Below are positions 2,550-63,048 of a stretch of DNA of 64,000 bases, piece after piece. Position 1 is the stretch's first letter, and every line of letters starts with the position of its first letter. Position numbers and translations under genes: made by a program. The notes under the pieces are model-generated. The model was not told the DNA's origin. It saw only the letters and a list, made by a program, of their open reading frames with translations, and searched no databases. The DNA lies in NCBI GenBank assembly GCA_903920865.1, contig CAIXNN010000036.1, forward strand, positions 27,165 to 91,164, given 5' to 3'. Source of the DNA: an uncultured Actinomycetes bacterium (GTDB lineage Bacteria; Actinomycetota; Actinomycetes; UBA12327).

Positions 2550-2671
2550 TTTAGGCTCAGATGTGCTCGCTTTAGGCACGAGATTGTGGTGCCGTTGGTT
2601 GAGCACACGCCTAGACTTAGGGCAGACCGCAGGCAGCTAGCGCAATAGTGATTCAGAAGGGGCTGGTGGGC

Positions 2672-4591: not shown

Positions 4592-5386
4592 TCCATCCTT
4601 GGCCGGCCACACCCCATCGGCGGTGACCAAAACGGCTACCGAAAATCCTCGGTCCTGTGCTGTGGTGGCCGCGGCGGCGCCACGAGTAAAGGCTGAATCA
4701 AGGTGGTTGGGATCAACCCAGCCCCGCGTTCGCATCGGAACCGCTAGAGCTCGCATCCCCACCTCATGGTGGCTGGCCAAGGCCGTGCGGAAAGTCGTTG
4801 AGCCCAGCAAAGTGATCACATCGCACGAACCCATCGGGCGCAAGGTCTGGGACGGGTCACTCTTGTGGCGCTTCGAAGCCAACTGAGCCATCGTGTCCAA
4901 GTAGTCCAGAGCCGATTCCCAGCATCGCTGTGGATCAAGGTCCAGGATCTCCAACAGTCCGGCCGGGACCACCGTGGCCTGTCGTTGCAGGTGCAACTGT
5001 TCTTTGATGCCTAATCCACGATGGATTAGTTCACCCGGGACTACATCGCGCACCCATTCCTGGCCTGGGTGATTGTCACAGTCATGGGGAAGGGCAATGA
5101 CGCAAAACTGATCAAAGAAAGCAGAGCTTTCAAGAGTTACTGCGCTGTCACACAGATCCCGAGCCAACGTGAACCATTGAGTAAGTGCCGAGCGAGTAGC
5201 TGTATTTGTTGGATCGTCGGTTTCCCCAACGATGCCGGCCACGCGCTCCCAGGAAATGAAAATGTCTTTGCTTGCATTGGTTCCCGGTGTTGCCGGAAGA
5301 ACGACGCCACCTGCATGGGGCGTGAGATCAACGCCATCAAGGACGCAGACCATCAGGACGGCCTGGCGCAATTGGGTAGGGGTCAT
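4547..5386 (-). CDS. Hypothetical protein; true start uncertain, may be an internal Met
   Basis: The only protein-like ORF in the dxs-FTR1 gap. Composition is consistent with coding, unlike the Arg/Pro-rich shadow ORFs on the other strand. No motif I can assign. Its 3' end overlaps the dxs 3' end by 45 nt, convergently. Confidence 0.35.
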
Positions 5387-5455
5387 GTCAACACGGTAGC
5401 AAGGTGCAGCGCAGATTCTTACTCAACTGCTTGCGCCAAATTAGTGATTGACTCA

Positions 5456-6322
5456 TTAAGACTTCACTGCTTTGGGGGATTTAGCCGGCGAATCCGGCGA
5501 ATCTGACGCCTTCGACGACGACGCCGCTGACATTGGCCGGAAGTAGGCAAAGGTCACTGATGCAACAAAGCACACCCAGACCACGACTTGGAGGACGGTG
5601 GTCTTGGCGTTGAAGTTGATCGTGCCTTCAAGCAGAGCCCCGTACCAAGAATTCGGATTGATGGTCGAGCTGACATCGAACGCCAAATTTTCTGCGCCAG
5701 GCAGCCAGCCAATTTCTTGGAATTCGTGGACTGCGGCACTGAGCACTCCGGCTGCAACGATGATTAAGAATGCTCCAGTCCAGCGAAAGAATACGGAAAG
5801 GTTGATCTTTACCGTGCGCTTGTAGAGCAGGTAGCCAAGTACCACCGAAGTAGCAAGCCCAAGGGCTGCGCCAATGATGGGAATGGCGGTATCCCCGGTG
5901 GCTTTGATCGCCGACCAGATGAAGATGGCGGTTTCAAACCCTTCGCGGGCCACAGCGATAAAAGCAAGGGTGATCATCGCGGAGGTGCCGACCACGAGCG
6001 CTTCATCAACCTTTTCTCGAAGTTCACCGCTAATGGTTGCCGACACCTTCCGCATCCAAAAAATCATCCAGGTGACGCCGGCAACGGCGAGCAACGAAAC
6101 CGTGCCTGTGAAGGCTGGTTCGAACTTAGCGGGAAGGTTGGTTGACGTCAGATCGATCAGGGCTGCGAAGATCAAGCAGGCCACGATGGCCAAACTCACG
6201 CCGGTCCACACCGCTCGCACCTGTTCGCGGCGATCAATTTTGATCAGATGGGCGATCAAAATTGACACCACGATGGCCGCTTCGAGGCCTTCACGAAGCC
6301 CGATCACGAAGTTGCCCAGCAT
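5456..6322 (-). CDS. FTR1/EfeU-family high-affinity iron permease
   Basis: 288-aa polytopic membrane protein with two RExxE motifs (REGLEAA near the N-terminus, REGFETA mid-protein), diagnostic of the FTR1 iron permease family. No efeO/efeB partner genes are adjacent. Confidence 0.8.
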   Translation of the reverse strand: MLGNFVIGLREGLEAAIVVSILIAHLIKIDRREQVRAVWTGVSLAIVACLIFAALIDLTSTNLPAKFEPAFTGTVSLLAVAGVTWMIFWMRKVSATISGELREKVDEALVVGTSAMITLAFIAVAREGFETAIFIWSAIKATGDTAIPIIGAALGLATSVVLGYLLYKRTVKINLSVFFRWTGAFLIIVAAGVLSAAVHEFQEIGWLPGAENLAFDVSSTINPNSWYGALLEGTINFNAKTTVLQVVVWVCFVASVTFAYFRPMSAASSSKASDSPDSPAKSPKAVKS

Positions 6323-6351
6323 GTGTTCCGCCTATGGTTAAAACGCTCTAC

Positions 6352-6370
6352 TTAGGTAATCCTAAGTTTA
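6352..6370. promoter_or_regulatory. Candidate DtxR/IdeR-type iron box upstream of the FTR1 permease gene
   Basis: Sequence TTAGGTAATCCTAAGTTTA (local palindrome CTTAGGTAATCCTAAG) lies 30-48 nt upstream of the permease start codon. It matches about 14 of 19 positions of the consensus iron box TTAGGTTAGCCTAACCTAA, recalled from memory. Confidence 0.35.
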
Positions 6371-6372
6371 TG

Positions 6373-7680
6373 TCATTCAGGTGCGGATTGCCCATCTGGC
6401 TGGCTTGATGGGCTTGGTAGCGGCTGCGGTGCCTGTCCGGTCTGGCTGGCCGTGGCGATGGCGCTGCAGATGGCTTCCACGGTCAAGTTGCGCTGCCAGG
6501 GGCGGGCTCCCCAGGTGGTGAGAAATTCATCGGCTGCCTGGGCATCGGGGTTGTCATCGTTAGACCACGGGGGAGTCCAACAAAGCCGCCGCAGATAGTC
6601 AGGAGTGAGCAGATTTTCCACCGGAATGTTGTGCCGTTCACCAAGTTCTGTTACGACGTGGCGAGCGGCAGCCAATCGCAGCGCCGCTGACTTGTCGCGC
6701 TCAGGCCATGCGCGCGCAGGGGGCGGACTATCGGAAGGAACTGAGGGAGCCGGCCACTGTTGCGCTGAAAGTTGGAGGGCGGCGTTAACTGCGCCCAGCC
6801 ACTTGCGCGTATTGCGTTGCGCACCTTTGCCTTTAAATCCATCAAGCACGATCAGCTCGGCTTCGGTCTTGGGTGCGGCCAGAGCAGCCTCAACGATGGC
6901 GATGTCTTGCAGGATTCGCCCAGGAGCGATGTCTCGTTGTTGCGCAATCTCATCGCGGGTTTGCCAAAGCTGCCTAACGATGGCAAGTTGCTGGCTTTGA
7001 CGCACCCGATGAAGACCAGAGACTCGTCGCCAAGGATCAACTCGAGGTTCGGCTGGCGGGGCATTGACGATAGCTTCGAATTCTTCTTGCGCCCATTGGG
7101 TTTTCCCTTGATCTTCAAGGTCTTTGGCTAACGCATGGCGCAATTCGATAAGCACCTCAACATCGAGCACGGCGTAGCGCAACCACGGCGCCGGAAGCGG
7201 GCGGGTGGACCAGTCTGCGGCGCCGTGCCCCTTTTCAAGTCGAAGGCCTAAGACCTCCTCAACGAGTGGTCCGAGCCCAACTCTTGCCTTGCCGGCAATG
7301 CGGCCGGCAAGCTCGGTGTCGAATAAAGAGGTCGGACTCATGTCAAGTTCACGCAGGCAGGGAAGATCTTGCGAAGCTGCATGCAAAATCCACTCGGTTC
7401 CTTCAAGTGCGTCATGGACCGAGCGAAGGTGATCGAGATTGATCGGGTCGATCAGGAAACTTCCGGCACCTTCGCGCTTAAGTTGCACCAGGTAGGCGCG
7501 TTGCCCGTAGCGATAACCAGACGCCCGCTCGGCGTCAATGGCAACCGGACCGGTCCCGCCGGCAAGCGCGCGGGCTGCTGCCTCAATTTCTGATGCATTT
7601 GAGAGAACCAGTGGCACCCCGCCGGCTGGTTCGAGCAAAGCAAGCTCAACAGCTGCTGGTACGGGCTGAACTTCGGTCAT
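6373..7680 (-). CDS. rnd: Ribonuclease D-like 3'-5' exonuclease with HRDC domain
   Basis: 435 aa. The N-terminal DEDDy-type exonuclease region (AIDAERASGYRYGQRAYLVQL) is followed by an HRDC-like helical region. Its position next to dxs matches the Rv2681/Rv2682c arrangement. Confidence 0.8.
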   Translation of the reverse strand: MTEVQPVPAAVELALLEPAGGVPLVLSNASEIEAAARALAGGTGPVAIDAERASGYRYGQRAYLVQLKREGAGSFLIDPINLDHLRSVHDALEGTEWILHAASQDLPCLRELDMSPTSLFDTELAGRIAGKARVGLGPLVEEVLGLRLEKGHGAADWSTRPLPAPWLRYAVLDVEVLIELRHALAKDLEDQGKTQWAQEEFEAIVNAPPAEPRVDPWRRVSGLHRVRQSQQLAIVRQLWQTRDEIAQQRDIAPGRILQDIAIVEAALAAPKTEAELIVLDGFKGKGAQRNTRKWLGAVNAALQLSAQQWPAPSVPSDSPPPARAWPERDKSAALRLAAARHVVTELGERHNIPVENLLTPDYLRRLCWTPPWSNDDNPDAQAADEFLTTWGARPWQRNLTVEAICSAIATASQTGQAPQPLPSPSSQPDGQSAPE

Positions 7681-7785
7681 TGGACAAACTTAGGTGCAGG
7701 CGTGGTGGAGATTGTTCAGGCGCACCCACGCGGCTCAACGGCCTCAGTGCTAAGGCAAGGTGGTTGACTGACGTGAGGTCGGGCC

Positions 7786-8418
7786 TTAGGTGATTAAGCC
7801 GGCTCGAAGAGCCAGGACCACCATCTCGGCGCGGTCTCCAGTTCCAAGCTTGCGGGCAATGCGCGCAAGGTGACTTTTAACCGTCAATGCTGACAGACCC
7901 AAGGCTTGTGCGACGTCGCGATTTCCTTGACCTTCTGCCACAAGATGTAGAACTTCAATTTCTCGATCTGAGAGTCCATCGGGTCCGATCGGATCACTGG
8001 TTTGGGGAGTGATGATGGTGACGTTGCCCGATAGTGGACGCGCTTGAATGCGTTCTGGATGGGTCACAACGTAACCGTGGATGCCAGCAGCTAAGGCAGT
8101 GCGCACCGAGGATGCGTCATCACTTGGCCCTAGAACAACCCCGCGCTGCCAGCCAGCTCGTCGAAGTTCGGTGACCAGTGCCACTCCACTTCCATCGATC
8201 AACGTGCTATCTGCAATGACTAAATCACCTGGATCAATGGTCAAAGATTGGGAACGAGCTCCGGCCAGGCTTGTGGTTTCAAAGATTTCTCGGGCCCCAA
8301 GGGAGTGCAACCGACGAACCAGCGCACCACGAACGGCAGGGCGACTAACTGCAACAAGGGCAGTAAATTGGCCCGCACGATTGACCGGGATCAGAGGGCG
8401 CTCCGACAGGGCGGTCAT
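7786..8418 (-). CDS. LuxR-family transcriptional regulator (GerE-type HTH, receiver-like N-terminus)
   Basis: C-terminal LSDREIEVLHLVAEGQGNRDVAQALGLSALTVKSHLARIARKLG is a classic LuxR/GerE HTH. The N-terminal ~120 aa are receiver-like, but I could not confirm a phospho-acceptor Asp. Confidence 0.75.
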   Translation of the reverse strand: MTALSERPLIPVNRAGQFTALVAVSRPAVRGALVRRLHSLGAREIFETTSLAGARSQSLTIDPGDLVIADSTLIDGSGVALVTELRRAGWQRGVVLGPSDDASSVRTALAAGIHGYVVTHPERIQARPLSGNVTIITPQTSDPIGPDGLSDREIEVLHLVAEGQGNRDVAQALGLSALTVKSHLARIARKLGTGDRAEMVVLALRAGLIT

Positions 8419-8504
8419 AGGGCTCCTCCCAAACTGATGGACAAACGTGTCACGGTGTCACGTCGCCTAACCAGTATCGGCATGAGCAGGAGGGTTCTTG
8501 AGGC

Positions 8505-9098
8505 CTAATTCCGCCGTGGTTGAAGGGGAATGGTGGCCACACCAGGCGGCAAATTCTCAAGCCCTGCGGCGGTGGCCATCAGGTCAATCCACGCGCTCAG
8601 GTGCCCACCCATGGTGGTCGGGGCGGTGAGCCCGTCGGGGGTCCAAGATGCCCGCACCTCAAGGTTGGCTTCCGGGGAGCGGTCTTCAAGTTCCCCAAAG
8701 GATTGGGAGCGCACCTGAGTCACGGTGCCACCCAACATGGAAAATTCGCATTCGTGAGTTTCTAACGCTTCAGTAAGCCACGACCAGCCAACCTCATGGG
8801 CCATGGGATCGGCGGCCATTTCGGCTTCTATGTCTGCTCTTACAAAGGTGACAACGCGAAATGTTCCGTTCCATGAACTGTGCCCATCGGGATCATGCAG
8901 TAGAACAAATCGTCCCGTGCCGATGTCTTGATCATCGATGACAACATCTGCGGTGAGTGCCACCGAAAAGGGAGCAAGTCGTTGTGGGGCTGGCGCTTCA
9001 TCAAGCAAAATTTCTGGACGAACTCGCACCGATCGCATGCCATCAAGGGCAACCCGAAAAGGCTCTGGAGCATCTTCTTGTGGGGCCGGCGCGTTCAT
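8505..9098 (-). CDS. Conserved actinobacterial hypothetical protein (DUF3000-like)
   Basis: 197 aa. Motifs LAPFSVALTADV...GRFVLLHDPDG...VVTFVRADIEAEM resemble the DUF3000 family, which lies near rnd/dxs in mycobacteria. This assignment is from memory. Confidence 0.5.
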   Translation of the reverse strand: MNAPAPQEDAPEPFRVALDGMRSVRVRPEILLDEAPAPQRLAPFSVALTADVVIDDQDIGTGRFVLLHDPDGHSSWNGTFRVVTFVRADIEAEMAADPMAHEVGWSWLTEALETHECEFSMLGGTVTQVRSQSFGELEDRSPEANLEVRASWTPDGLTAPTTMGGHLSAWIDLMATAAGLENLPPGVATIPLQPRRN

Positions 9099-9200
9099 TA
9101 CTCACAGAGTAGGTCGCGCTGGCTGTTGAACTGTAGAACCGACCGTGTCGCAGGGGTGCGGCGTGTCGGATCAACCGGTGGCCGCCGATAGCCTCAGGGC

Positions 9201-10088
9201 ATGCCAGTCCTGCTTGCTCTGTTCTCAAGTGCATTGTGGGGAACTGCTGACTTCCTTGGTGGGAACCTGACCAAGAGGATGTCCAGCTATGTGGTGGTCG
9301 GCTGGTCACAAGCCTTCGGTCTGGCTTCTGTAGTCCTGATTTGCTCAACCTTCCATGGCTGGGGTAACTGGGCCTCGGTGCTGTGGGTGGGCGTAGGCAC
9401 CGGCGTCAGCGCGTACTTCGCGTTGGTGTTCTTCTACTCAGCGTTGAGTCAGGGAACGATGGGTGTGGTTGCTCCTATTACGGCAACAGGTGCCGTGGTT
9501 CCGGTGCTCTTTGGCCTACTCACCGGCGATAAGCCTTCTTGGTTGCAGGGGGCCGGAATAGCCGTGGCTTTCATTGGAGTCATAGCTGCTAGCGGCCCAG
9601 AAATCTCCGGTCGGAACGAATCGGGATGGCGGCCACTTGTTCTAGCTGGTTTATCGGCCATCGGATTTGGAGTGGCTCTAAGTTTTCTTGCCGTCGGCAG
9701 TCGCACAGACGTGGTGGCCACCCTTGGTGTTGAACGCGTAGTCACTGTTGGATTAGCTCTGGGCAGTTTGGCCGTTGCACTGATTCGCCAGCGATCTGGT
9801 CATGGTGGAAAAGGTTCAGTTCTGACTCGGGCTCGAGATTTAGTTGCACTGTCGAGGCCGGACGTGGTGGCCACAGCCGCTATTGGAATCTTTGACATCG
9901 GCGCAAACATTGCTTTTGGTGTCAGTACGACTTTGGGTCTTTTGTCCATTGTCGCCATTGGCGGATCGCTTTACCCGGTGGTGACGGTGATTTTGGCCGG
10001 AATTGTTTTGAAAGAGCGATTGGCCAGAATTGAAAAAATCGGTGTGAGTTTGGCGTTACTTGGAGTGTTGTTGATCTCGGCTGGCTGA
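9201..10088 (+). CDS. EamA/DMT-family transporter
   Basis: 295 aa with ~10 hydrophobic segments in two repeated halves, typical of the drug/metabolite transporter superfamily. Confidence 0.75.
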   Translation: MPVLLALFSSALWGTADFLGGNLTKRMSSYVVVGWSQAFGLASVVLICSTFHGWGNWASVLWVGVGTGVSAYFALVFFYSALSQGTMGVVAPITATGAVVPVLFGLLTGDKPSWLQGAGIAVAFIGVIAASGPEISGRNESGWRPLVLAGLSAIGFGVALSFLAVGSRTDVVATLGVERVVTVGLALGSLAVALIRQRSGHGGKGSVLTRARDLVALSRPDVVATAAIGIFDIGANIAFGVSTTLGLLSIVAIGGSLYPVVTVILAGIVLKERLARIEKIGVSLALLGVLLISAG

Positions 10089-10610: not shown

Positions 10611-11126
10611 CTACGGACCAGTGGGAACGACAAATCCAGGGTTTTGACCACCTGGATTAATTGATCCGCTCTGGGCTGGTACCTGAATCGGTGCTTGGGT
10701 TTGCGCCGGGGCAGGGGTCGAACTTCCACCGGTCAGTGCGCGAATACCAAAAAATGCGCCAGCGATAACGGCGATTGCCACCAGCGCTGTCACGATGATG
10801 TTTCCGCGCGAGAAGCGAGATTTTTTCTTGACCGGAGCCAGCTGACTTGCTGCTGGAGCTGCACCTGACTCGTCAGGTGAACTAAATGGACTGGCCGGCG
10901 GCGCAGGCGCAACGGGCGGAGGCAACGTTGATGTGGCTACAGCTGTCGCTGGTGTGACCGCTGGCGCTGCCAGCGGGGCGGGCTCGGCTTGATGACCGGT
11001 CCAGTCATTGCCATCCCAGTACTGAATCAGGGCAGGGTTGTCTGGGTCTTCATACCAGCCAGGAATAGGCGCTTGCTGTGTGTCGCCCATCTTTACTTCC
11101 TCCCCATTGGAGTGCCTAGGTAACAA
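10611..11126 (-). CDS. DUF2510-like motif protein with C-terminal transmembrane anchor
   Basis: N-terminal GWYEDPDNPALIQYWDGNDWTG motif, then a Pro/Ala-rich linker and one hydrophobic helix. The start is probably the Met at 11090 (MGDTQQ...). Confidence 0.6.
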   Translation of the reverse strand: MLPRHSNGEEVKMGDTQQAPIPGWYEDPDNPALIQYWDGNDWTGHQAEPAPLAAPAVTPATAVATSTLPPPVAPAPPASPFSSPDESGAAPAASQLAPVKKKSRFSRGNIIVTALVAIAVIAGAFFGIRALTGGSSTPAPAQTQAPIQVPAQSGSINPGGQNPGFVVPTGP

Positions 11127-12450: not shown

Positions 12451-12869
12451 TGATTCAAGTAACCATGATGCTGTGTGACTACGCCCAAGTTGCAGATGGC
12501 AAGTTGTTCATCAACGGAGCCGGTTGGTCGCTGGTTGATTCGCATACTCCACCGTGTGCCATCGCCATGATCGTGATGGTTCCTTGGGATCGCGCTGGCA
12601 CCCCTTTGGAACTTGACCTGGCCCTGATTGATGAAGATGGCAGGGCCGTGGTGCAAGGCACTGATGAGGCTGTTAATCCGATCCGCATTAATGTGCGCAT
12701 TGAAGTCGAACGGCCGGCGGCACAACCTGCTGGCGTTCCTATTGATGTTCCGCTCGCGCTCGGGATTCCGCCGCTTCAGCTATCGCCCTATGGCCGCTTT
12801 GCGTGGCAATTAAGCATTGATGGCCAACAGCGGGAGGAATGGAATTTAGCCTTCTCCACCCGCGCCTAA
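12450..12869 (+). CDS. Hypothetical protein, translationally coupled to the lipoprotein gene
   Basis: The ATG at 12450 overlaps the upstream stop (TGATG). The 139-aa product has a coding-like composition (MIQVTMMLCDYAQVADGKLFINGAGWS...). No assignable family. Confidence 0.45.
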   Translation: MIQVTMMLCDYAQVADGKLFINGAGWSLVDSHTPPCAIAMIVMVPWDRAGTPLELDLALIDEDGRAVVQGTDEAVNPIRINVRIEVERPAAQPAGVPIDVPLALGIPPLQLSPYGRFAWQLSIDGQQREEWNLAFSTRA

Positions 12870-13681
12870 TGCTCTGATTCGACGTGAGCTAGGAACTGGC
12901 CAATGGCGTCCGAAAAGAGCTTCTTGTGCTCGCGGCCGGCCACCACGTGGGGGAGATTGGCAATGACCAAACCTTGGGCACCAGGGATGGCCTGTTCGAG
13001 AGGCGTAGTCAGACGCGTACCTGTGAGAAGGTCCGCGTCCGCGTGGATGACAAGTGTGGGCGCGGTGATTTCTGACAGTCGCGAGCGTGCATCGTGGGTC
13101 ACCGTTGCTTCCACGATGCGGGCCATGCCCTCAAGGTTGTTGTTTAAGTGCGACCACGGGCCCTGTTCACCCAGAAATGAGTCGGCGCGTTCGTTGTAGT
13201 AGTCCGGGTCAAAACACCATTGCGCGCACAGTTGTTGAAATTTTAAGAACCCTTGAGTTTGTGCAATCTCAAGCAAGGTGTTCATTTGATCAGTGAAGAG
13301 TCGATCCGGGCCGACCCAACCGCCCGACATGGTTAACGACCGCACAAGTTCTGGATGGTCGATGGCTAGCCACTGTGCAACGCACGCGCCAATGCCCACA
13401 ATGCCGACGATGTGCGCGGGTGTTCCGCCGACGTGGTTCAGCACCGCGGCTGCATCAAGGGCATGCGCGCGCGTGGTGGCTGCGATCTGCGCGCTGTCTG
13501 TGCTTTGTCCCAGCCCGCGCCAATCGATCAAAACCACGCGTCGGCCCTCAGCTACGGCCCAGGGAACTTGGGCAAAAGCGCCATCGGTGTAGGTGCCCCA
13601 GCCGACCATGACCAGAACCGTGGGACCTTCGCCGTGGACCTCGTAGTAGATGTCCACACCTTGGCTGCTAATCGTTGGCAT
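12866..13681 (-). CDS. Alpha/beta-fold hydrolase
   Basis: Start taken at the internal Met (MPTISSQGVDIYYEVHGEGP...). HGEGPTVLVMVGWG and the nucleophile-elbow-like GIVGIGACVAQ are typical alpha/beta hydrolase features. Confidence 0.75.
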   Translation of the reverse strand: MPTISSQGVDIYYEVHGEGPTVLVMVGWGTYTDGAFAQVPWAVAEGRRVVLIDWRGLGQSTDSAQIAATTRAHALDAAAVLNHVGGTPAHIVGIVGIGACVAQWLAIDHPELVRSLTMSGGWVGPDRLFTDQMNTLLEIAQTQGFLKFQQLCAQWCFDPDYYNERADSFLGEQGPWSHLNNNLEGMARIVEATVTHDARSRLSEITAPTLVIHADADLLTGTRLTTPLEQAIPGAQGLVIANLPHVVAGREHKKLFSDAIGQFLAHVESEH

Positions 13682-13786
13682 GGGGCAATTGTGCCGACCG
13701 CCTGATCTGGCTGTGATCGTGCCTAGAAAAAAAATTCGGCGGCCAAAACAGGGATCACTGTCAGTGGGTCCTGTCATGATTTGGAC

Positions 13787-13806
13787 TTAGCGCAAATCTG
13801 CGCTAA
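13787..13806. promoter_or_regulatory. 20-bp palindrome TTAGCGCAAATCTGCGCTAA abutting a TAACAT -10-like hexamer
   Basis: Perfect 8-bp inverted arms with a 4-bp spacer, 43 nt upstream of the 13850 ATG. GGGAGGAG RBS follows. Candidate operator overlapping the promoter. Confidence 0.4.
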
Positions 13807-13849
13807 CATGGTCTAGCTGGCACAAGCTGGTCAGACGGGAGGAGCACAG

Positions 13850-14731
13850 ATGAAATTTCCAACGTTGCATGTGGGTCGGGGTAGCCAAGTCGGGCCTTTG
13901 ACAGTTTTCCCACTGTGGGCAAACAAGCCCGCGCCGACGAAGCGCTTTTTCAGCAACAAGTCAGGGTCCTTGGCGGTCGCCGAACGCGAAGGCGCACCGG
14001 TGGTTGGCGAACTAGTAGTGAGCAACAACAGTGACGCGCCGGTTCTGCTGTTGGCTGGCGATTTACTTGAGGGTGGTTGGCAGCATCGTGTGATTTCCGA
14101 GCCAGTGCTCATCGCGGCCGGTGCATCAGAAGTAGTCAATGTCAATTGCGTCGAACGTGGTCGTTGGTCTGGTGCCGGGGAGCAGATCAACCGTGGACGT
14201 AAGACTGGTCCACGCCTTCGTTCCAAACTTGAAGCGTATGAACAACTCAAGCAACAAGAAGTCTGGGCAGAAGTTGATCGTTTTTCCACCTCCCAATTCA
14301 CTTCCAAGACTGCCTCTTACATTGACTACTTGAACTTGGTGGAGGAGCAGGCCGTGGGTAGCGACGTACGCCCGCTCGATGGTCAAGTAGGAGTTGTTGT
14401 GGCGGCAAATGGTCACCCGGTCATGCTTGAGGTTTTCGCCACGCACGAAGATTTGGTGCAGGCCTGGGACGCGCTCATTGGCGGCGCCTTGGCAGATACT
14501 CGTGGGGTTCGCTCCGTGCGCACTCCGTCTCGACGCATCCACCGCTTCATTGACGGTTTGGAGTCCGTTGAGCTCAGCCGCAGTTCCAAAGCTGGTTTGG
14601 CCGACAAGGTGGTCGGTCAAGGTGAGGCCGAGGGCTTATTCACCTCGATTTCGTGCGTGGAATGGGATGAGGAATTGGTGCACCTGCTGGTTCTGAATCA
14701 GCGCCACGATCTGTTTGCTGACGCGATCTAA
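13850..14731 (+). CDS. Hypothetical protein (293 aa), family unknown
   Basis: ATG with strong RBS GGGAGGAG. Coding-like composition. No catalytic or binding motif I recognise; no TM segment or signal peptide. Confidence 0.6.
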   Translation: MKFPTLHVGRGSQVGPLTVFPLWANKPAPTKRFFSNKSGSLAVAEREGAPVVGELVVSNNSDAPVLLLAGDLLEGGWQHRVISEPVLIAAGASEVVNVNCVERGRWSGAGEQINRGRKTGPRLRSKLEAYEQLKQQEVWAEVDRFSTSQFTSKTASYIDYLNLVEEQAVGSDVRPLDGQVGVVVAANGHPVMLEVFATHEDLVQAWDALIGGALADTRGVRSVRTPSRRIHRFIDGLESVELSRSSKAGLADKVVGQGEAEGLFTSISCVEWDEELVHLLVLNQRHDLFADAI

Positions 14732-14769
14732 GACCCAGGTCCTAGAGTGTTTGGACAAGGGAATGGGGG

Positions 14770-15141
14770 TTGGTTGTGGGCTGGCAAATTAGGCGCTCAA
14801 AGTACTTTGGGCCATTTCGAGTTTCGCTGACCAAGCGTGGTCTTTCGGGTTCGGTTGGTATCCCAGGTTTTCGGATGTCAACAAATACCCGTGGCCAGGT
14901 GCGGCGAACTGTTCGCATTCCTGGAACTGGTATTTACAACACCAAAATTCTGAACCCCAAAAGCTCTTCGAGTGCGGCCCGAAAGTCCAAGGCGCCAAAA
15001 AGGGCACCTGCCACTGCCACGCAGGCACACCCCGAACAACCACCACCGCCATCGGCACCAGCCAGTTGGTATCCAGATCCGCAGGGGGTTGCCACCTGGC
15101 GCTGGTGGGATGGCCAGGTCTGGACTCAGCACACGGCCTAA
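14770..15141 (+). CDS. DUF4236-like N-terminal domain fused to a DUF2510-like C-terminal motif
   Basis: TTG/GTG start region 14770-14776. N-terminus RRSKYFGPFRVSLTKRGLSGSVGIPGFRMSTNTRG...IPGTGIYNT fits the DUF4236 pattern. C-terminus WYPDPQGVATWRWWDGQVWT is the DUF2510 motif. A Pro/Lys-rich linker separates them. Confidence 0.65.
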   Translation: MVVGWQIRRSKYFGPFRVSLTKRGLSGSVGIPGFRMSTNTRGQVRRTVRIPGTGIYNTKILNPKSSSSAARKSKAPKRAPATATQAHPEQPPPPSAPASWYPDPQGVATWRWWDGQVWTQHTA

Positions 15142-15276
15142 AGAAACTCCTGTGCTGTCGGACCCTTGTTCTATAGTTGCAAACAGGTTATGAGTGAGCG
15201 TCGCATGTGGCCCCTTGGCCTTGTCGCTTCAGCAACCGCGCTTTCCCGCGCACGGTGCTTCCAAGGGTTAAACCGG

Positions 15277-15302
15277 CCGGGGAAGCCAATTGGCTTCCCC
15301 GG
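15277..15302. promoter_or_regulatory. Perfect 26-bp palindrome CCGGGGAAGCCAATTGGCTTCCCCGG; a second hairpin follows at 15309-15330
   Basis: Reverse complement is identical to the forward sequence. It lies 48 nt upstream of the phosphatase ATG and 135 nt downstream of the preceding stop. The next hairpin is GGGTTTTCTGCTGTGAAAACCC. Confidence 0.5.
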
Positions 15303-15350
15303 AAGCGCGGGTTTTCTGCTGTGAAAACCCTGATCGAAAGTTGATTTGTT

Positions 15351-15887
15351 ATGTCATCTGATGATGCTTTAGATGGTTTGTCCCCGCAATGGGTCGGCGC
15401 TGAAGACCTGGAATGGCTGCCTCATGAGATCTTGCCGAATCTGTTTATGGGCGGCACCGGTGATCTTGATGTGGTCACGGTTCCTAAGGACAATCCGGAC
15501 CTTATCGCCAATCATGGCTTTGACGCGGTGGTGACTTTGTATGCGCGAGCTCAACCGGTTGGCTGGGGAGTGGTGGAGCATCGTTTTGGTTTTCCCGATT
15601 CAATGCTCGCTCCCAAGGACAAGGGTCGAATCATTCAAGCTGCTCGCTGGACTCATGAACGTTGGAGTTCAGGCGATCGTGTCTTGGTTCGCTGTCAGGC
15701 GGGTTTGAATCGTTCGGGATTGGTCTTAGCTCTTGCATTGATGATCGAGGGATACACGGCCCAGGATGCAATCGAGTTGCTACGCCAACAGCGTTCGGAG
15801 TTCGTGCTGTGCAATCGCCAATTTGAACGCTGGGTGCAGACCGACGCACATGCTGACCTCTTTGGACAGGATGCGGACGGTGAGTGA
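15351..15887 (+). CDS. Small dual-specificity/tyrosine-type protein phosphatase (CX5R)
   Basis: 178 aa. The active-site P-loop VRCQAGLNRSG is C-X5-R followed by S/G. A candidate general-acid Asp sits in GFPDSM ~36 residues upstream of the Cys. Confidence 0.7.
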   Translation: MSSDDALDGLSPQWVGAEDLEWLPHEILPNLFMGGTGDLDVVTVPKDNPDLIANHGFDAVVTLYARAQPVGWGVVEHRFGFPDSMLAPKDKGRIIQAARWTHERWSSGDRVLVRCQAGLNRSGLVLALALMIEGYTAQDAIELLRQQRSEFVLCNRQFERWVQTDAHADLFGQDADGE

Positions 15888-16254
15888 AGTTTTGACGAAC
15901 TGTCGAGTCCATGGGGCGGGGCACTTCGGACACATGATGCACGAGTGGAAGGTGGTGGGGCCACTTACTGCCAAGCCCCTGCACAAGCGTGGTGTTGAAG
16001 TGCTCTGCCTTGAGGTGGTCGATGTGGTCAGCGACGAAAAAGGGGAATTCGCCATCGTCGAACTCGAGCGCATCGACGGCAAGCTCTTTGCTGGCTTTAC
16101 CCATCGGCCGGCGGACTTGATCAAACACATTGAACACGGGCACCCAGCGGTGTTTAAGAAGGGGATCGGGCGCCTGTTTTTTGAAACCGAGCACTTCATG
16201 ATCTCGAAAGTTCGTGATTTTAAGGATCGTGTGCCCTGCGCCCATGACGTCTAG
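15871..16254 (+). CDS. Hypothetical His/Cys-rich protein, translationally coupled to the phosphatase
   Basis: ATG 15871 overlaps the phosphatase 3' end by 17 nt. The 127-aa product has CRVHGAGHFGHMMHEW, HIEHGH and a C-terminal CAHD, suggesting metal binding. The antisense ORF 15631-16245 has a shadow-like Arg/Pro/His composition. Confidence 0.4.
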   Translation: MRTVSEVLTNCRVHGAGHFGHMMHEWKVVGPLTAKPLHKRGVEVLCLEVVDVVSDEKGEFAIVELERIDGKLFAGFTHRPADLIKHIEHGHPAVFKKGIGRLFFETEHFMISKVRDFKDRVPCAHDV

Positions 16255-16314
16255 CCCAATAAGAATAGCGATGCCGGATAACCAGCATCGCCTTTCTTAT
16301 TAATGGGTCGGGAG

Positions 16315-16602
16315 TTATTCCTGTTCGACGTACAGCTCAACGCGGGGGATGCCAATGACTCCGATGTTGTGCATGCGCTCGCGAAGCAGCGGATCATCGC
16401 GGAAAGCGGCGGCCTGGTCGCGGTTGGCAAATGTGTGGATCGCTGCGATGGTGTTGGGCGAGCCTTCCAAGCGGTACAGGGACTTGGAAATGTAACCGTG
16501 TGCTTGACGAAGGTCCTCTGCGCTCACATAGCCGGCGTACCAGATGTCGTAATCTTCGACGTCGTGTTGGATGAAAAGTGTTGCCATGATGTGTCCGCTC
16601 AT
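16315..16602 (-). CDS. Hypothetical small protein (about 90-95 aa)
   Basis: Coding-like composition (MATLFIQHDVEDYDIWYAGYVSAEDLRQAHGY...). Convergent with the phosphatase pair. A small alpha+beta stress-protein-like fold is a guess only. Confidence 0.4.
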   Translation of the reverse strand: MSGHIMATLFIQHDVEDYDIWYAGYVSAEDLRQAHGYISKSLYRLEGSPNTIAAIHTFANRDQAAAFRDDPLLRERMHNIGVIGIPRVELYVEQE

Positions 16603-16671: not shown

Positions 16672-16749
16672 TGGTGGGCGATACAGGACTTGAACCTGTG
16701 ACCTCTTCCGTGTCAGGGAAGCGCGCTAGCCAGACTGCGCCAATCGCCC
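16672..16749 (-). tRNA. tRNA-Val (anticodon GAC), CCA encoded
   Basis: Cloverleaf read by hand: acceptor GGGCGAU/AUCGCCC, anticodon stem-loop CUUCC-CUGACAC-GGAAG, T-arm GGUUCAAGUCC, discriminator A plus CCA. Confidence 0.85.
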
Positions 16750-16750
16750 G

Positions 16751-16821
16751 AGGTGGAGACGGGATTTGAACCCGTGTAGACGGCTTTGCAGGCCGTTGCC
16801 TCGCCTCTCGGCCACTCCACC
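16751..16821 (-). tRNA. tRNA-Cys (anticodon GCA)
   Basis: Acceptor GGUGGAG/CUCCACC, anticodon loop CUGCAAA, T-loop GGUUCAAAUCC, discriminator U. No encoded CCA. Confidence 0.85.
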
Positions 16822-16848
16822 GCAGAATAAGCCCGAAGGCTTCATCCG

Positions 16849-16921
16849 AGCGGACGACGGGATTCGAACCCGCGACCCTCACCTTGGCAAGGTGATGCTC
16901 TACCAACTGAGCCACGTCCGC
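16849..16921 (-). tRNA. tRNA-Gly (anticodon GCC)
   Basis: Acceptor GCGGACG/CGUCCGC, D-arm GCUCAGUUGGUAGAGC, anticodon loop UUGCCAA, T-loop GGUUCGAAUCC. The spurious ORF 16394-16915 runs through the cluster. Confidence 0.85.
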
Positions 16922-19908: not shown

Positions 19909-19983
19909 GGGCGATTGGCGCAGTGGTAGCGCGCTTCGTTCACACCGAAGAGGTCACTGGTTCGAACCCAGTATCGCCCACCA
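19909..19983 (+). tRNA. tRNA-Val (anticodon CAC), CCA encoded
   Basis: Acceptor GGGCGAU/AUCGCCC, anticodon loop UUCACAC, T-loop GGUUCGAACCC, ACCA 3' end. The spurious ORF 19923-20156 covers it. Confidence 0.85.
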
Positions 19984-20080: not shown

Positions 20081-22273
20081 CTACACCGCTGAAGCTTTCG
20101 CGCGGGCCTGCGCGGCAAGTGCTGCGCAGTGCGGGCAGTTATCGCCGCGCACATGAATATCCACGGGGCGAGGAGTCCACGATCCGTCGGCACCGTTTTC
20201 GCACGCCAGACAGCGCGCCGCAGTTGGGGTGTCATCGCTCTTGGGGTTTGCCAGCCACGTGAACGCCCCGTCGAGTGGGTCCTCTTTCGGCGTTGGTTGC
20301 CGCGCGCGCGAGACCAGATCGGCCACGACCGCAGCATTTTGAAGCGTGGTGATATCGCCCAAATCTCGACCTTCGCTGATGTCGCGCAGAAGACGTCTCA
20401 TGATCTTGCCCGAACCGGTCTTGGGCAGTTCATCGGTGATCACAATGGAGGACGGCCTGGCAAAGCGACCGATCCGACCGGCCACGTGATCGCGCAGTTC
20501 GGTGATCAATTCATCGCTTGGTTCAACCGAGTTCTTGAGCGTGACGAAAGCCGCGATTGACTGACCCGTCATTGGATCTGCACGACCAACTACCGCCGCC
20601 TCTGCCACCGCGTGGTGATCTAGAAGAGCGGCTTCGAGCTCAACGGTTGAGAGGCGATGGCCTGACACGTTCATCACGTCGTCGATGCGACCGACAACCC
20701 AGATGTAGTCATCGTCATCACGCCTTGATCCGTCGCCGGCTAGGTATCGCCCTGGGTATTGCGACCAGTAGGTCTTCAGATAGCGCTCGTCGTCACCCCA
20801 CAGCGTTCGCATCATCGCTGGCCATGGGCCATCAAGCATGAGCAAACCGCCCTGGCCTGATTCGACACTTGTGCCATCCTCATTGATGACGTCTGCGCGG
20901 ATGCCCGGCAGCGGGAATGTGGCTGAACCAGGCTTGAGTGGAACCGCCCCTGGAAGCGGAGCGATCATGATCATGCCGGTTTCGGTTTGCCACCACGTGT
21001 CGACAATGGGACAGCGCCCACCGCCGACGTTGGTGTAATACCAGTCCCAGGCTTCGGGCTTGATCGGCTCACCCACCGAACCCAGCAGACGCAGTGACGT
21101 GAGGTCGTGCTTCTGGAGGTGTTCAACCCCCCACTTCATGAAGGTGTGGATAGCAGTAGGCGCGGTGTACAGGATCGTCACGCCGTAGCGCTCGATGATG
21201 CTCCAAACGCGATCTTTGTCCGGTGTGCCAGGTGCGCCTTCGTACATGACTCCTGTGGTGCCGTTGGCTAGCGGGCCGTAAACGATGTAACTGTGACCGG
21301 TAATCCAACCGATGTCGGCCGCACACCAGTAAATGTCATCACTATGGATGTCGAAGACCTGGCGATGAGTCGTGGAGACACCGACGAGATATCCGCCGGT
21401 GGTGTGCAAGATGCCTTTGGGCTTTCCAGTGGTGCCGGAGGTGTAGAGCACGAAGAGGGGATCTTCGGCATCCATCGGTTCGGGATCACAGGTGTCAGGC
21501 TGGTTCGCAACGAGCTCGTGGTACCAGTGATCGCGTCCATCAACCCACTCAACGGGGCTGCCCGTTCGTCGAGTGACAACGACGTTGGTCACTGAAGGAC
21601 AGGTCAGGAGCGCTTCGTCAACTGGCCCCTTGAGCGCAATTGAGCGGCCGTGCCGCCACGACTCGTCCTGCGTGATGACTGTGGTGCAGACCAGGTCGTT
21701 GATCCGGTCAGCGATTGCGGTGGGACTGAATCCAGCGAAGACGACGGTGTGAGGTGCCCCGATGCGTGCGCAGGCCAGCATGGCAACCGGTAGTTCAGGG
21801 ACCATGCCCATGTAGATCGCCACGGGGTCGCCCTTGCGAACGCCCAATTCCCGCAGCGCGTTGGCCATGCGACAGACGCGAGCATGCAGGTCCAGGAAAG
21901 TGATCGACTCGGTTTCGCCGGGCTCACCTTCCCAAAAGTAAGCAACCTGGTCACCCTTGGTGGGAAGGTGACGATCAAGGCAGTTCACCGACACGTTCAA
22001 TTTTCCATCGACAAACCACTTGTAGAACGGAGCATTGGAGTCATCGAGCACCTGAGTCCAAGGAGATATCCAGTCGATGCTTTGAGCCTGTTCGGCCCAG
22101 TAGCCCGTGAGGTCCTGTTCGGCCTGCTTGTAGAGCGAGCGGTCGGTGATCGCCGAGTGGGAGACGAACTCGGCCGAGGGCGCAAACATGTGATCATCGG
22201 TTTGGATGACTTCGATCAGTGGACCGCTTTGCGTTGTCAAATCTGGCGCATCGGAGCCGGGCCTTTCAGCCAT
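20081..22273 (-). CDS. acs: Acetyl-CoA synthetase (AMP-forming) with a ~70-aa C-terminal Cys-containing extension
   Basis: AMP-binding core (YTSGTTGKPKG, PKTGSGKIMRR with the conserved regulatory Lys). After LGDITTLQNAAVVADLV the ORF continues ~72 aa with CLACENG...(21 aa)...CPHC. Confidence 0.9.
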   Translation of the reverse strand: MAERPGSDAPDLTTQSGPLIEVIQTDDHMFAPSAEFVSHSAITDRSLYKQAEQDLTGYWAEQAQSIDWISPWTQVLDDSNAPFYKWFVDGKLNVSVNCLDRHLPTKGDQVAYFWEGEPGETESITFLDLHARVCRMANALRELGVRKGDPVAIYMGMVPELPVAMLACARIGAPHTVVFAGFSPTAIADRINDLVCTTVITQDESWRHGRSIALKGPVDEALLTCPSVTNVVVTRRTGSPVEWVDGRDHWYHELVANQPDTCDPEPMDAEDPLFVLYTSGTTGKPKGILHTTGGYLVGVSTTHRQVFDIHSDDIYWCAADIGWITGHSYIVYGPLANGTTGVMYEGAPGTPDKDRVWSIIERYGVTILYTAPTAIHTFMKWGVEHLQKHDLTSLRLLGSVGEPIKPEAWDWYYTNVGGGRCPIVDTWWQTETGMIMIAPLPGAVPLKPGSATFPLPGIRADVINEDGTSVESGQGGLLMLDGPWPAMMRTLWGDDERYLKTYWSQYPGRYLAGDGSRRDDDDYIWVVGRIDDVMNVSGHRLSTVELEAALLDHHAVAEAAVVGRADPMTGQSIAAFVTLKNSVEPSDELITELRDHVAGRIGRFARPSSIVITDELPKTGSGKIMRRLLRDISEGRDLGDITTLQNAAVVADLVSRARQPTPKEDPLDGAFTWLANPKSDDTPTAARCLACENGADGSWTPRPVDIHVRGDNCPHCAALAAQARAKASAV

Positions 22274-22377
22274 CAGTTACCTCGTAGGGTCATCGTTCCC
22301 GTACGAGAGACCGTCCGGCTCTCCCGTTGATTCTCATTCAATCGGAAATGCAAGGACGGCGCAAGCAGGTTGGCAAT

Positions 22378-23073
22378 CTACGACGATGTTGAGGAAACTG
22401 CTCGAGCGATAAGTACCGTCAGCATGCTCACGGCTAACAGCACTTGGAATGCCATAACGAGTTTGCCCACGCGAGACATGATCGCCTCAGAGGTTGGCCC
22501 ATAGGTTGAGTTGACGTTGAGGGAAATAAATAAGTAGTCAAGGAAGTTTGGTGTGGGCGGCTTTTCGCCTTCGCGCGCGGGCCAGACGAATGCTCCACCC
22601 GGGGTGGTGACGTCAATAAAGATGTAGACGAACGTAAAGACCAGCACGCTCATCAGGTAGACGAGGCCGACGTCCCACAAAGAGGTGAGTCCGCCACCTT
22701 GATGGGCGTTGGCGGTTCCCAACATGGAGATCACGTTAAGCACAACCTGGAAAACGGCGTATGCCAAGTAAACGGCAATGAATTTCGACAACGTGACAAA
22801 TTTGTCAGCCAGAATCGCGTAGATCATGATGCAGCTCGAAATGACGAAAAGGAACGTCCCGAAGAGTTCAAGGTTGTCGAAAAGCTTCAGCTCTGAGGTG
22901 ATGTAGCCACCATGAATCAAGTGTCGAGTCAGCAACGTATGGAGAAACCAAATCAGAACCAAGGCGCCAACAAGTCCAAAGCGGCCTTTGCCGTGGTGCA
23001 GTTGAGCCCAAAATTCTTGTGCGGGTGCTAACTCGGAGGTCATGGCAGCGCTGTCGTCTTTATCGTGTTCCAC
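22378..23073 (-). CDS. Hypothetical integral membrane protein
   Basis: 231 aa with about 5-6 hydrophobic segments. Lower-GC codon usage than its neighbours, judged by eye. Family not assigned. Confidence 0.5.
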   Translation of the reverse strand: MEHDKDDSAAMTSELAPAQEFWAQLHHGKGRFGLVGALVLIWFLHTLLTRHLIHGGYITSELKLFDNLELFGTFLFVISSCIMIYAILADKFVTLSKFIAVYLAYAVFQVVLNVISMLGTANAHQGGGLTSLWDVGLVYLMSVLVFTFVYIFIDVTTPGGAFVWPAREGEKPPTPNFLDYLFISLNVNSTYGPTSEAIMSRVGKLVMAFQVLLAVSMLTVLIARAVSSTSS

Positions 23074-62737: not shown

Positions 62738-63048
62738 GACCAATTTAAGGCCGGCTTCGTGGCCACTTTTGTGCCTGCAGGGCCCGATTTTCGTGCCTAG
62801 CGGCTCGGATCGGGAAAATTTCTCAAAAAACTTGTGAAAAAGCACTCAAGGTTTTCACCCAACTGGGCGAAGTAATACCTGTCAGTGAGCTACCCGGCCA
62901 GAAAGGGCACACCCACCGAGAGGTGGGGTCGCAAAGCCAGGGGACCGCACCCGCGGTCAGCCCAGCTACCTCGGTTGGTACTTCGAAAGAAGCACCGGTG
63001 GGGACCAGAAGCCGAAGCTCTAGGTTCACCCAGAAAGGGACCATCCCG

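Follow-up and report, generated by a model that had tools for sequence, protein, structure and literature searches.

A probable ARG-less relative of predicted NrtR/ARPP/phosphatase systems, with a SAM-IV family leader RNA, at a variable tRNA-proximal site in a freshwater actinobacterium

What is the compact gene block that separates an alpha/beta hydrolase gene from the gene for tRNA-Val(GAC) in an uncultured Actinomycetes bacterium, and how might it be controlled? The block consists of a palindrome, five open reading frames (ORFs) and a 209-nt spacer, and lies within a 64-kb stretch of contig CAIXNN010000036.1, which we call the window. Here, we find that one of its proteins is ARPP-1, that another is a Cys-based phosphatase of the DSPc family, that the spacer RNA belongs to the SAM-IV riboswitch family, and that ARPP and phosphatase genes recur together elsewhere. 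We consider it probable that the block is an accessory insertion and a reduced relative, without ADP-ribosylglycohydrolase (ARG), of the NrtR/ARPP/rhodanese-phosphatase systems, organized as two separately regulated units. An earlier sequence-only reading, made without database searches, had listed the features of the block, each of which is present where it was placed (ORF listing, Pfam and raw sequence), and had concluded that no function could be assigned. This conclusion was too pessimistic, since a known family or a recurrent motif could be assigned to two of the five proteins, to the spacer RNA and to the palindrome. The features, in window coordinates, are these:

13787-13806, no strand: 20-bp palindrome TTAGCGCAAATCTGCGCTAA, occurring once in the 64-kb window
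13804-13809, plus strand: candidate -10 hexamer TAACAT of the ARPP unit, read by eye
13850-14731, plus strand: ARPP-1 protein, 293 aa (PF20208)
14770-15141, plus strand: DUF4236+DUF2510 protein, 123 aa (Pfam), on the same strand as ARPP and 3′ of it
15142-15350: spacer, 209 nt, with a perfect 13+13 palindrome at 15277-15302
15172-15177, plus strand: candidate -10 hexamer TATAGT, 8 nt 5′ of the riboswitch, read by eye
15186-15313, plus strand: SAM-IV riboswitch aptamer (RF00634)
15309-15330, plus strand: expression-platform hairpin GGGUUUUC / GAAAACCC, its stem conserved in two relatives (L005 and L006)
15351-15887, plus strand: Cys-based phosphatase of dual-specificity (DSP) type, 178 aa (DSPc; RCQAGLNRSG)
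15850-16254, plus strand: orphan His/Cys-rich protein, 124-134 aa, with candidate starts at 15850, 15871 and 15880
16258-16301, no strand: bidirectional terminator-like hairpin with 20-nt arms, 85% complementary and T-rich on both sides, which separates the convergent genes
16315-16602, minus strand: convergent protein, 95 aa, family not found
16672-16921, minus strand: tRNA-Val(GAC), tRNA-Cys(GCA) and tRNA-Gly(GCC), the conserved right-hand boundary of the insertion

The five ORFs look like real genes under purifying selection. Two related metagenome-assembled genomes, L005 and L006 (L-numbers label the loci and genomes compared), have the gene order in common with the window at 88-90% protein identity, and against these relatives the ratio of nonsynonymous to synonymous substitution (dN/dS) is 0.04-0.11 for all five ORFs, at dS of 0.76-1.8. 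The values for individual genes are 0.05 for ARPP, 0.10 for the DUF4236/DUF2510 gene, 0.05 for the phosphatase, 0.11 for the orphan and 0.11 for the 95-aa protein. A longer antisense ORF of 204 aa was considered as a gene and set aside as spurious, because its dN/dS is above 2. The species itself recurs on freshwater metagenome scaffolds in ENA of up to 688 kb.

The 293-aa protein had been described as having no recognisable motif, which is wrong: it matches ARPP-1 (PF20208) over the whole domain, with an E value of 1.5e-53 and 182.5 bits against a Pfam cutoff of 27 (residues 6-281 on profile positions 2-296 of 297). It keeps all the residues that are invariant in the family: Q78, R80, C100, E102, R105 and W106. 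C100, within the motif CVExGRW, is invariant in 43 ARPP sequences including that of the window, as are Q78 and Q135, and the conserved Cys and Gln expected of ARPP-1 (Iyer et al. 2022) are both present. An AlphaFold2 (AF2) model based on the 43-sequence alignment has a pLDDT of 92.1, and no credible solved structural relative of this model was found. This agrees with the published statement, in the part of PMC9503650 concerned with the domain, that ARPP is unrelated to characterised folds; its fold is given there as a duplicated beta-meander sheet with an inserted beta-barrel. The 123-aa product of the next gene combines DUF4236 (E 9e-13) with DUF2510 (E 1e-7) in Pfam, and the DUF4236 part also has matches to nine phage families in PHROG whose function is unknown (best E 7e-19). 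Among ARPP loci, this protein is restricted to the lineage of the window. A gene 3 kb upstream (~10611-11090, minus strand) encodes a second DUF2510 protein, of 159 aa, and DUF2510 is therefore not specific to the block in this genome.

The phosphatase, whose CX5R motif the sequence-only reading had recognised correctly, belongs to the DSPc family (PF00782; E 2e-9, 37.8 bits against a cutoff of 33.5). Its P-loop, RCQAGLNRSG, is intact, and C115, R121 and D83 are invariant in a 28-sequence alignment of the family. With 1578 homologues, this is a large actinobacterial family. The closest solved structures are small archaeal protein tyrosine phosphatases (PTPs), among them 5z5b at E 4.6e-7.

The name ARPP comes from Iyer, Burroughs, Anantharaman and Aravind (Viruses 2022, PMC9503650), who predicted ARG-centric systems that would reverse viral ADP-ribosylation. 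As set out in that paper, these systems comprise ARG; a phosphatase linked to it, in most cases from the rhodanese-phosphatase superfamily; a repressor with a Nudix (NrtR) or WYL domain; the chaperones vWA, SseB and TY-Chap1-3; and variable extras that include ARPP. By the same account, about 42% of the systems have a Nudix or WYL regulator, and the absence of a coupled ADP-ribosyltransferase (ART) or sirtuin is one of their marks. In the literature searched, we found nothing on ARPP experiments beyond this paper. In the window, the DSPc phosphatase lies 620 nt downstream of ARPP, in the manner of a linked phosphatase, and no block protein has an ART or SIR2 match in Pfam, as expected of an ARG-centric system.

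The recurrent neighbours of both proteins point to the same systems. In a genome scan anchored on the phosphatase, which covered 80 loci from freshwater and other Actinobacteria and in which ORFs were clustered to find neighbours, a vWA gene lies immediately upstream on the same strand in 38 loci. Other neighbours are an HDAC-like gene (28 loci), a sigma factor resembling the extracytoplasmic-function (ECF) type (21), a TY-Chap3-like gene (21), ARPP (13), NrtR (12), HD_4 (7) and an ARG-phosphatase fusion (4), together with NERD-helicase and HNH genes and a 351-aa family that we suspect to be T5orf172-like. ARPP stands beside phosphatase homologues in 11 further diverged loci, and loci anchored on ARPP show the arrangements NrtR-ARPP-ARG, NrtR-ARPP-(ARG+DSPc) and NrtR-ARPP-DSPc-HD_4, as well as ARPP-ARG fusions. 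From these neighbours, we infer that the phosphatase and ARPP of the window belong to the predicted ADP-ribose system, of which the block is a minimal or reduced variant without ARG.

The same phosphatase family, at 45-56% identity, also occurs on 166 predicted viral contigs in IMG/VR (L171-L250). Of the 80 viral loci kept from these 166 relatives, 56 carry an HDAC-like gene as well, and none carries vWA, NrtR, HD_4 or SAM-IV. These viral copies may represent a phage-borne phosphatase-deacetylase pair. The presence of the phosphatase on viral contigs fits a place at the virus-host interface and is no proof of one.

Comparison of the insertion site supports the view of the sequence-only reading that the block is an accessory module. 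The comparison was anchored on the PabB-like gene beyond the tRNA cluster; the tRNA Val-Cys-Gly cluster adjoins PabB in many Actinobacteria. Two related lineages, L089 and L090 (PabB 76% and 71% identical), keep p154, DUF6941, the alpha/beta hydrolase, tRNA Val-Cys-Gly and PabB in this order and lack the whole block, leaving a gap of 0-430 nt between hydrolase and tRNA-Val; a search for remnants in these empty sites found no trace. A closer relative, L088 (PabB 87%), also without the block, has other cargo at the same tRNA, namely dienelactone-hydrolase-like and SelO-like genes. The absence of the block from two related lineages with the same flanks marks it as an insertion restricted to its own lineage, at a tRNA-proximal site whose content varies. 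Its variable presence across relatives and a gene content that matches a computationally predicted virus-host conflict system both accord with accessory status.

Some observations concern the flanks. The longest ORF of the alpha/beta hydrolase (window 12866-13777, minus strand) is 303 aa, and a gene caller on an identical ENA scaffold picks a 263-aa start (~13657), which makes the spacer upstream of ARPP ~190 nt instead of 72 nt. In L006, the hydrolase gene (2216-3078, minus strand) aligns as two pieces (residues 1-98 and 115-302) and may be disrupted. Elsewhere in the window, directly after tRNA-Val(CAC) at 19909-19983, a 425-aa protein without a Pfam match is followed by a 449-aa SNIPE/T5orf172/MUG113 nuclease-like protein (~20218-22848, plus strand; coordinates transferred from L001), and this may be another small tRNA-proximal accessory pair. 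Far from the block, a c-di-GMP-I riboswitch (RF01051) scores 55.5 bits against a gathering threshold of 35 (62896-62973, plus strand).

How might the first unit be regulated? The sequence-only reading had noted a promoter-proximal, operator-like palindrome, and this is borne out. The element, TTAGCGCA-AATC-TGCGCTAA, or TTAGCGCA-N4-TGCGCTAA in its general form, is invariant in L005 and L006, although its flanks vary. A degenerate version of the motif has 12 matches in all 1.49 Mb of DNA fetched, of which 11 lie 33-83 nt before an ARPP start; the palindrome is therefore a conserved element upstream of ARPP genes, and no earlier report of it as such was found in the literature searched. Matches upstream of ARPP occur in 10 of 19 ARPP loci. 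In most of the motif-bearing loci the motif sits in the spacer between divergent NrtR and ARPP genes (L010, L167, L169, L086 and L008), and the spacers of distant genomes share it, as TTAACGCAAGTTTGCGCTAA in L010 and TTAGCGCAGTTTTGATCTAA in L169. By comparison with these spacers, the palindrome of the window is probably an NrtR-type repressor site. A candidate -10 element of the form TAnnnT overlaps the right arm of the operator (TAAACT in L005, TAAAAT in L006). A scan for sigma-70 consensus promoters found nothing, and the -10 elements listed here are by-eye candidates.

L010 itself holds a fuller island (2426-10008). It contains two phosphatase paralogues, an ECF-like sigma factor, an FGase-family amidohydrolase, WhiB, a UPF0114 membrane protein and an NrtR gene divergent from ARPP with two copies of the operator; SAM-IV is followed there by two small ORFs and then HD_4.

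The second unit begins with the spacer. The 209-nt structured spacer and its perfect 26-bp palindrome, as described in the sequence-only reading, are both present, and the structure is not a novel one: it is a SAM-IV riboswitch (RF00634), named for S-adenosylmethionine (SAM), in which the palindrome (15277-15302) forms helix P5. The match scores 55.5 bits against a gathering threshold of 38 and spans model positions 1-116 of 116; L005 and L006 score 51.6 and 51.4. Helices P1, P2a/b, P3 and P5 and the pseudoknots PK-1 and PK-2 are all present. Across three species-level genomes the spacer is 93% identical, with synonymous sites in the flanking genes saturated (dS >1). In 15 aligned copies, 96.1% of helix cells pair, as against 33-43% in slid controls, with compensatory changes in 25 of 32 pairs; the two pseudoknots covary as well (92.3% of cells paired, 6 of 9 pairs compensatory). 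Outside the covarying helices, the window copy keeps nearly all highly conserved Rfam positions, including GAG, GCAACC, GGUGC and the U-A pairs of P1. From this conserved consensus core, the RNA is predicted to be a SAM-sensing riboswitch. The hexamer TATAGT lies 8 nt before the aptamer, and TAGAGT is found at the equivalent site in L005 and L006, which suggests that the phosphatase unit has its own promoter with TATAGT as candidate -10.

The SAM-IV fold recurs in related loci. A regular expression missed all diverged copies. A first custom covariance model (R1) was based on three sequences that hardly differ and, with default filters, did not find the L010 copy, which is why a second (R2) was built. 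Rfam SAM-IV is found above gathering upstream of the phosphatase in L005 and L006, and also in L010, L015, L009, L017, L053, L076, L042 and L018. With the two custom models, 19 copies were found in 15 of 82 host phosphatase loci, all within ~5.5 kb of the phosphatase gene. Run on control DNA, the same model gave a single weak match (17 bits) in 483 kb of actinobacterial loci anchored on PabB, and none in 856 kb of viral loci that carry this phosphatase family. The phosphatase is downstream of SAM-IV in the window lineage and, in L067, at the end of a small-Cys-protein-TPR operon. Elsewhere SAM-IV precedes small ORFs, or the gene for an unknown 198-aa protein, with HD_4 next in line; a Fic gene; a gene for an unknown protein with an Rce1/CAAX-type protease gene behind it; or other orphans. 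No report of SAM-IV together with this phosphatase and island gene set, or with defence, was found in the literature searched.

Several of these copies deserve separate mention. On a complete Nanopelagicaceae chromosome (L015, OZ254140), three SAM-IV-like elements lie within 1.4 kb (2988-3105, 3788-3918 and 4248-4367, all on the minus strand), each preceding a small cassette, beside an HD_4-sigma-vWA-phosphatase-HDAC core. In L076, a weaker SAM-IV-like match (8520-8626, plus strand; 48.7 bits with the custom model) is directly upstream of a gene for a Fic/DOC protein (8778-9965, plus strand). In three copies (L045 2736-2858, L015 4248-4367 and L044 4339-4460), CCCUCC...CCGGUGG replaces the conserved CCAACC...ACGGUGG core; these score below Rfam gathering with all helices kept, and may have an altered ligand or be decaying.

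The direction of switching is best approached through the sister copies. In six of them, the 3′ strand of PK-2 contains, or is directly followed by, a purine-rich ribosome-binding site, with the start codon 10-12 nt later. In L045, L067 and L009, that strand doubles as the 5′ arm of a hairpin, and when it is blocked, as it would be with SAM bound, the computed fold shifts to a small hairpin that covers the AGGG before the start codon. Both arrangements would act as OFF switches. The window has the same architecture as L045, L067 and L009: the platform hairpin (15309-15330) has a stem that is conserved and a loop that differs in L005 and L006, and the GGG of its 5′ arm is also part of the 3′ strand of PK-2, GCGGG (15307-15311). 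Blocking GCGGG weakens the computed fold from -16.5 to -6.4 kcal/mol. By analogy with the sister copies, SAM binding would turn the phosphatase unit of the window off.

The two remaining proteins are less easily placed. Profile searches with the 293-, 127- and 95-aa products found PF20208 for the first and no family for the other two. The orphan gene overlaps the phosphatase stop codon by 8-38 nt and is probably translationally coupled to it, as the sequence-only reading had proposed; the 127-aa length given there corresponds to the start at 15871, one of the three candidates. The orphan has only 11 homologues, all at least 64% identical and within its own lineage, and neither a word-indexed search nor a full HMMER scan of 1.84 billion representative proteins found other relatives. 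It has no match in Pfam (E up to 10), PHROG or a PDB profile search, and an AF2 model on its shallow alignment (pLDDT 35) is unusable. In other loci the gene after the phosphatase is TY-Chap3-like; the idea that the orphan is a diverged TY-Chap3 was rejected, with an hhalign probability of 0.1%. For the 95-aa protein, searches of Pfam, NCBIfam, PHROG and the PDB gave no match. This protein is 83% identical in L006 and absent from L088, L089 and L090, and it belongs to the variable block.

The layout of the block, its family assignments, conservation, covariation and variable presence, and the co-occurrence of ARPP with the phosphatase are observations. They can be combined into a model, in which ligands, direction of switching, substrates and any role in conflict are proposed conditionally. 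In the first unit, a promoter with its -10 element overlapping the palindrome would drive ARPP and the DUF4236/DUF2510 protein. The palindrome would be bound by an NrtR repressor of Nudix type, whose gene lies elsewhere in the genome, and an ADP-ribose-like ligand would release it. In the second unit, a separate promoter would give rise to a leader RNA that folds as SAM-IV, followed by the Cys-phosphatase and the overlapping orphan. With SAM bound, PK-2 would hold GCGGG; with SAM scarce, GCGGG would instead join the GGGUUUUC/GAAAACCC hairpin. A fall in SAM would switch on the phosphatase unit, and a rise in the NrtR ligand would switch on ARPP.

A number of points weigh against this model or parts of it. 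The parent system is itself a computational prediction (PMC9503650), and none of its components is known to have been tested experimentally. None of the five proteins matches ARG (PF03747), and tblastn with two ARG proteins found nothing in the 64-kb window, so that the block lacks the enzyme at the core of the parent system. The window also has no NrtR homologue, no WYL regulator gene, and no vWA, HDAC or TY-Chap gene; the absent regulator does not exclude membership, because only the minority of systems mentioned above have one. Within the block there is no integrase, as the sequence-only reading had stated, and we found only chance-level repeats of 11-13 nt in place of an att-like repeat, no anomaly in GC content or composition relative to the surrounding DNA, and no match for any protein in PADLOC-DB 2.0, which covers known and candidate defence proteins. 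With no PADLOC match, no integrase and no att-like repeat, the defence role suggested earlier is not supported. One caveat to the recurrence of SAM-IV is that the covariance models were trained on these very loci, which could bias the comparison with the controls. Many of the SAM-IV loci, moreover, come from related Nanopelagicaceae/Planktophila genomes with shared synteny, and are therefore not independent events. Lastly, thermodynamic folding of the window platform gave no clear sequestor of the weak ribosome-binding site GAAAG, and this is why the direction of the switch in the window rests on analogy.

Could the block be explained without a conflict system? The phosphatase and orphan may form an ordinary SAM, methionine or sulfur regulon, acting for example on a pathway intermediate, with ARPP unrelated to them. 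SAM riboswitches have been described as controlling sulfur metabolism (PMC6890682), and the aptamer agrees with the Rfam consensus in its core nucleotides. The block is under purifying selection, as a useful gene set would be, and its composition is that of the surrounding DNA. However, no recognisable methionine or SAM gene lies downstream of any of the 19 SAM-IV copies in related loci; the constant partners of the phosphatase family are vWA, HDAC-like, NrtR, ARPP and ARG; the family is common on predicted viral contigs; ARPP and phosphatase co-occur in at least 11 diverged loci; and the block is absent from sister lineages. We regard this explanation as quite unlikely. It is also conceivable that the RNA is a variant of the SAM-IV fold that senses another adenosine-containing signal, such as S-adenosylhomocysteine (SAH), SAM-AMP or an ADP-ribose derivative, in which case an established fold would gain a new ligand class. 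Such a signal would be in keeping with the nucleotide-centred system around the RNA. The other sensor of the system, NrtR, is predicted in PMC9503650 to bind ADP-ribose, SAM-derived immune signals exist, SAM-AMP among them (PMC10600005), and the three island copies with CCCUCC for CCAACC (L045, L044 and the 4248-4367 element of L015), all below gathering, indicate that the family drifts in its core. The window copy, on the other hand, keeps nearly all conserved consensus positions and scores 17 bits above gathering, and most island copies keep the core too, which makes a change of ligand very unlikely here.

Conventional signalling by protein phosphorylation is to our minds just as improbable as an altered ligand. 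A Tyr/Ser/Thr phosphatase would in that case reset a kinase pathway, with ARPP and the orphan as substrates or adaptors and no part for ADP-ribose. The nearest solved relatives are indeed protein tyrosine and dual-specificity phosphatases (5z5b, DUSP23 and PRL), and vWA-phosphatase pairs are common in bacterial signalling. Yet no kinase is found in the block or among the recurrent neighbours, and the recurrent partners ARG, NrtR-Nudix and HD_4 are nucleotide-directed. Least likely of all, in our view, is that the block is the decaying leftover of a larger ARG-centred island, without a working system, its genes persisting by chance or for unrelated uses. Such a remnant would account for the loss of ARG, NrtR, vWA and TY-Chap, for an operator with no cognate regulator gene nearby, and for the lack of an integrase or att site. 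It is hard to square with dN/dS of 0.04-0.11 in five ORFs at dS of about 1, with an invariant operator and a riboswitch spacer 93% identical in three species-level genomes, or with the intact catalytic residues of ARPP and phosphatase.

Within variable islands that match the predicted ADP-ribose-centred conflict system, a well-scoring SAM-IV with at least 12 covarying relatives stands before phosphatase, HD, Fic and orphan genes. If the reading we favour, of a reduced ARPP/phosphatase system in two regulated units, is correct, the level of SAM would be linked to a conflict or stress module, a link of which we found no instance in the literature searched. The ARPP/phosphatase system would also gain two testable regulatory handles, the operator and the riboswitch, in a compact five-gene version amenable to synthesis and testing. 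A bolder extension concerns phages. Some phages destroy SAM with SAM lyases, disabling SAM-dependent restriction or BREX. It is possible, though unlikely, that SAM-IV guards the SAM pool in freshwater Actinobacteria, and that a phage-driven fall in SAM de-represses phosphatase, HD_4, Fic and CAAX/Abi-like modules in NrtR/ARPP/vWA islands. A metabolite riboswitch would then report infection to an immune or counter-modification system, and the phosphatase and HDAC-like gene on viral contigs would mark the opposing side of the same conflict.

Finally, we compare the block with the known systems that it resembles. Like tRNA-linked genomic islands, it directly adjoins the 3′ side of tRNA-Val as an insertion, is variably present between conserved flanks, and has different cargo at its site in L088; unlike them, it carries neither an integrase nor a direct repeat of the tRNA 3′ end, and its GC content is normal. 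Its phosphatase shares CX5R, the general-acid Asp and a size within ~150-180 aa with small archaeal and atypical DSPs (5z5b, DUSP23). Similarity to 5z5b is limited to residues 81-160 (E 4.6e-7), however, and these enzymes lack the N-terminal motifs LPxLFMGGT and WGVEELRYGF and the genomic partners of the window family. The leader RNA resembles SAM-IV (RF00634; structure by cryogenic electron microscopy, PMC6890682) in its full-length match above gathering, in all five helices, in both covarying pseudoknots and in its conserved core, whereas the genes that it precedes, a Cys-phosphatase and an orphan, are not sulfur, methionine or SAM genes. Like NrtR operators, the 20-bp palindrome overlaps a candidate -10 region, and in other loci this motif occupies the gap between divergent NrtR and ARPP genes; here it has no NrtR gene adjacent to it or anywhere in the 64 kb. 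Compared with the ARG-centric systems, the window lacks ARG, an NrtR or WYL gene and a recognisable chaperone in the 64 kb, and adds the DUF4236/DUF2510 protein, a lineage-specific orphan and SAM-IV, which section 3.8 of PMC9503650 does not mention. It shares with those systems ARPP and an adjacent phosphatase of the rhodanese-phosphatase superfamily, the operator motif of NrtR-ARPP spacers, a variable accessory position, and a phosphatase whose homologues are flanked by vWA, TY-Chap3-like, NrtR, HD_4 and ARG genes. The proteins are thus those of a known predicted system; what is new is the combination of no ARG, an operator without a local regulator, a lineage-specific orphan and SAM-IV.

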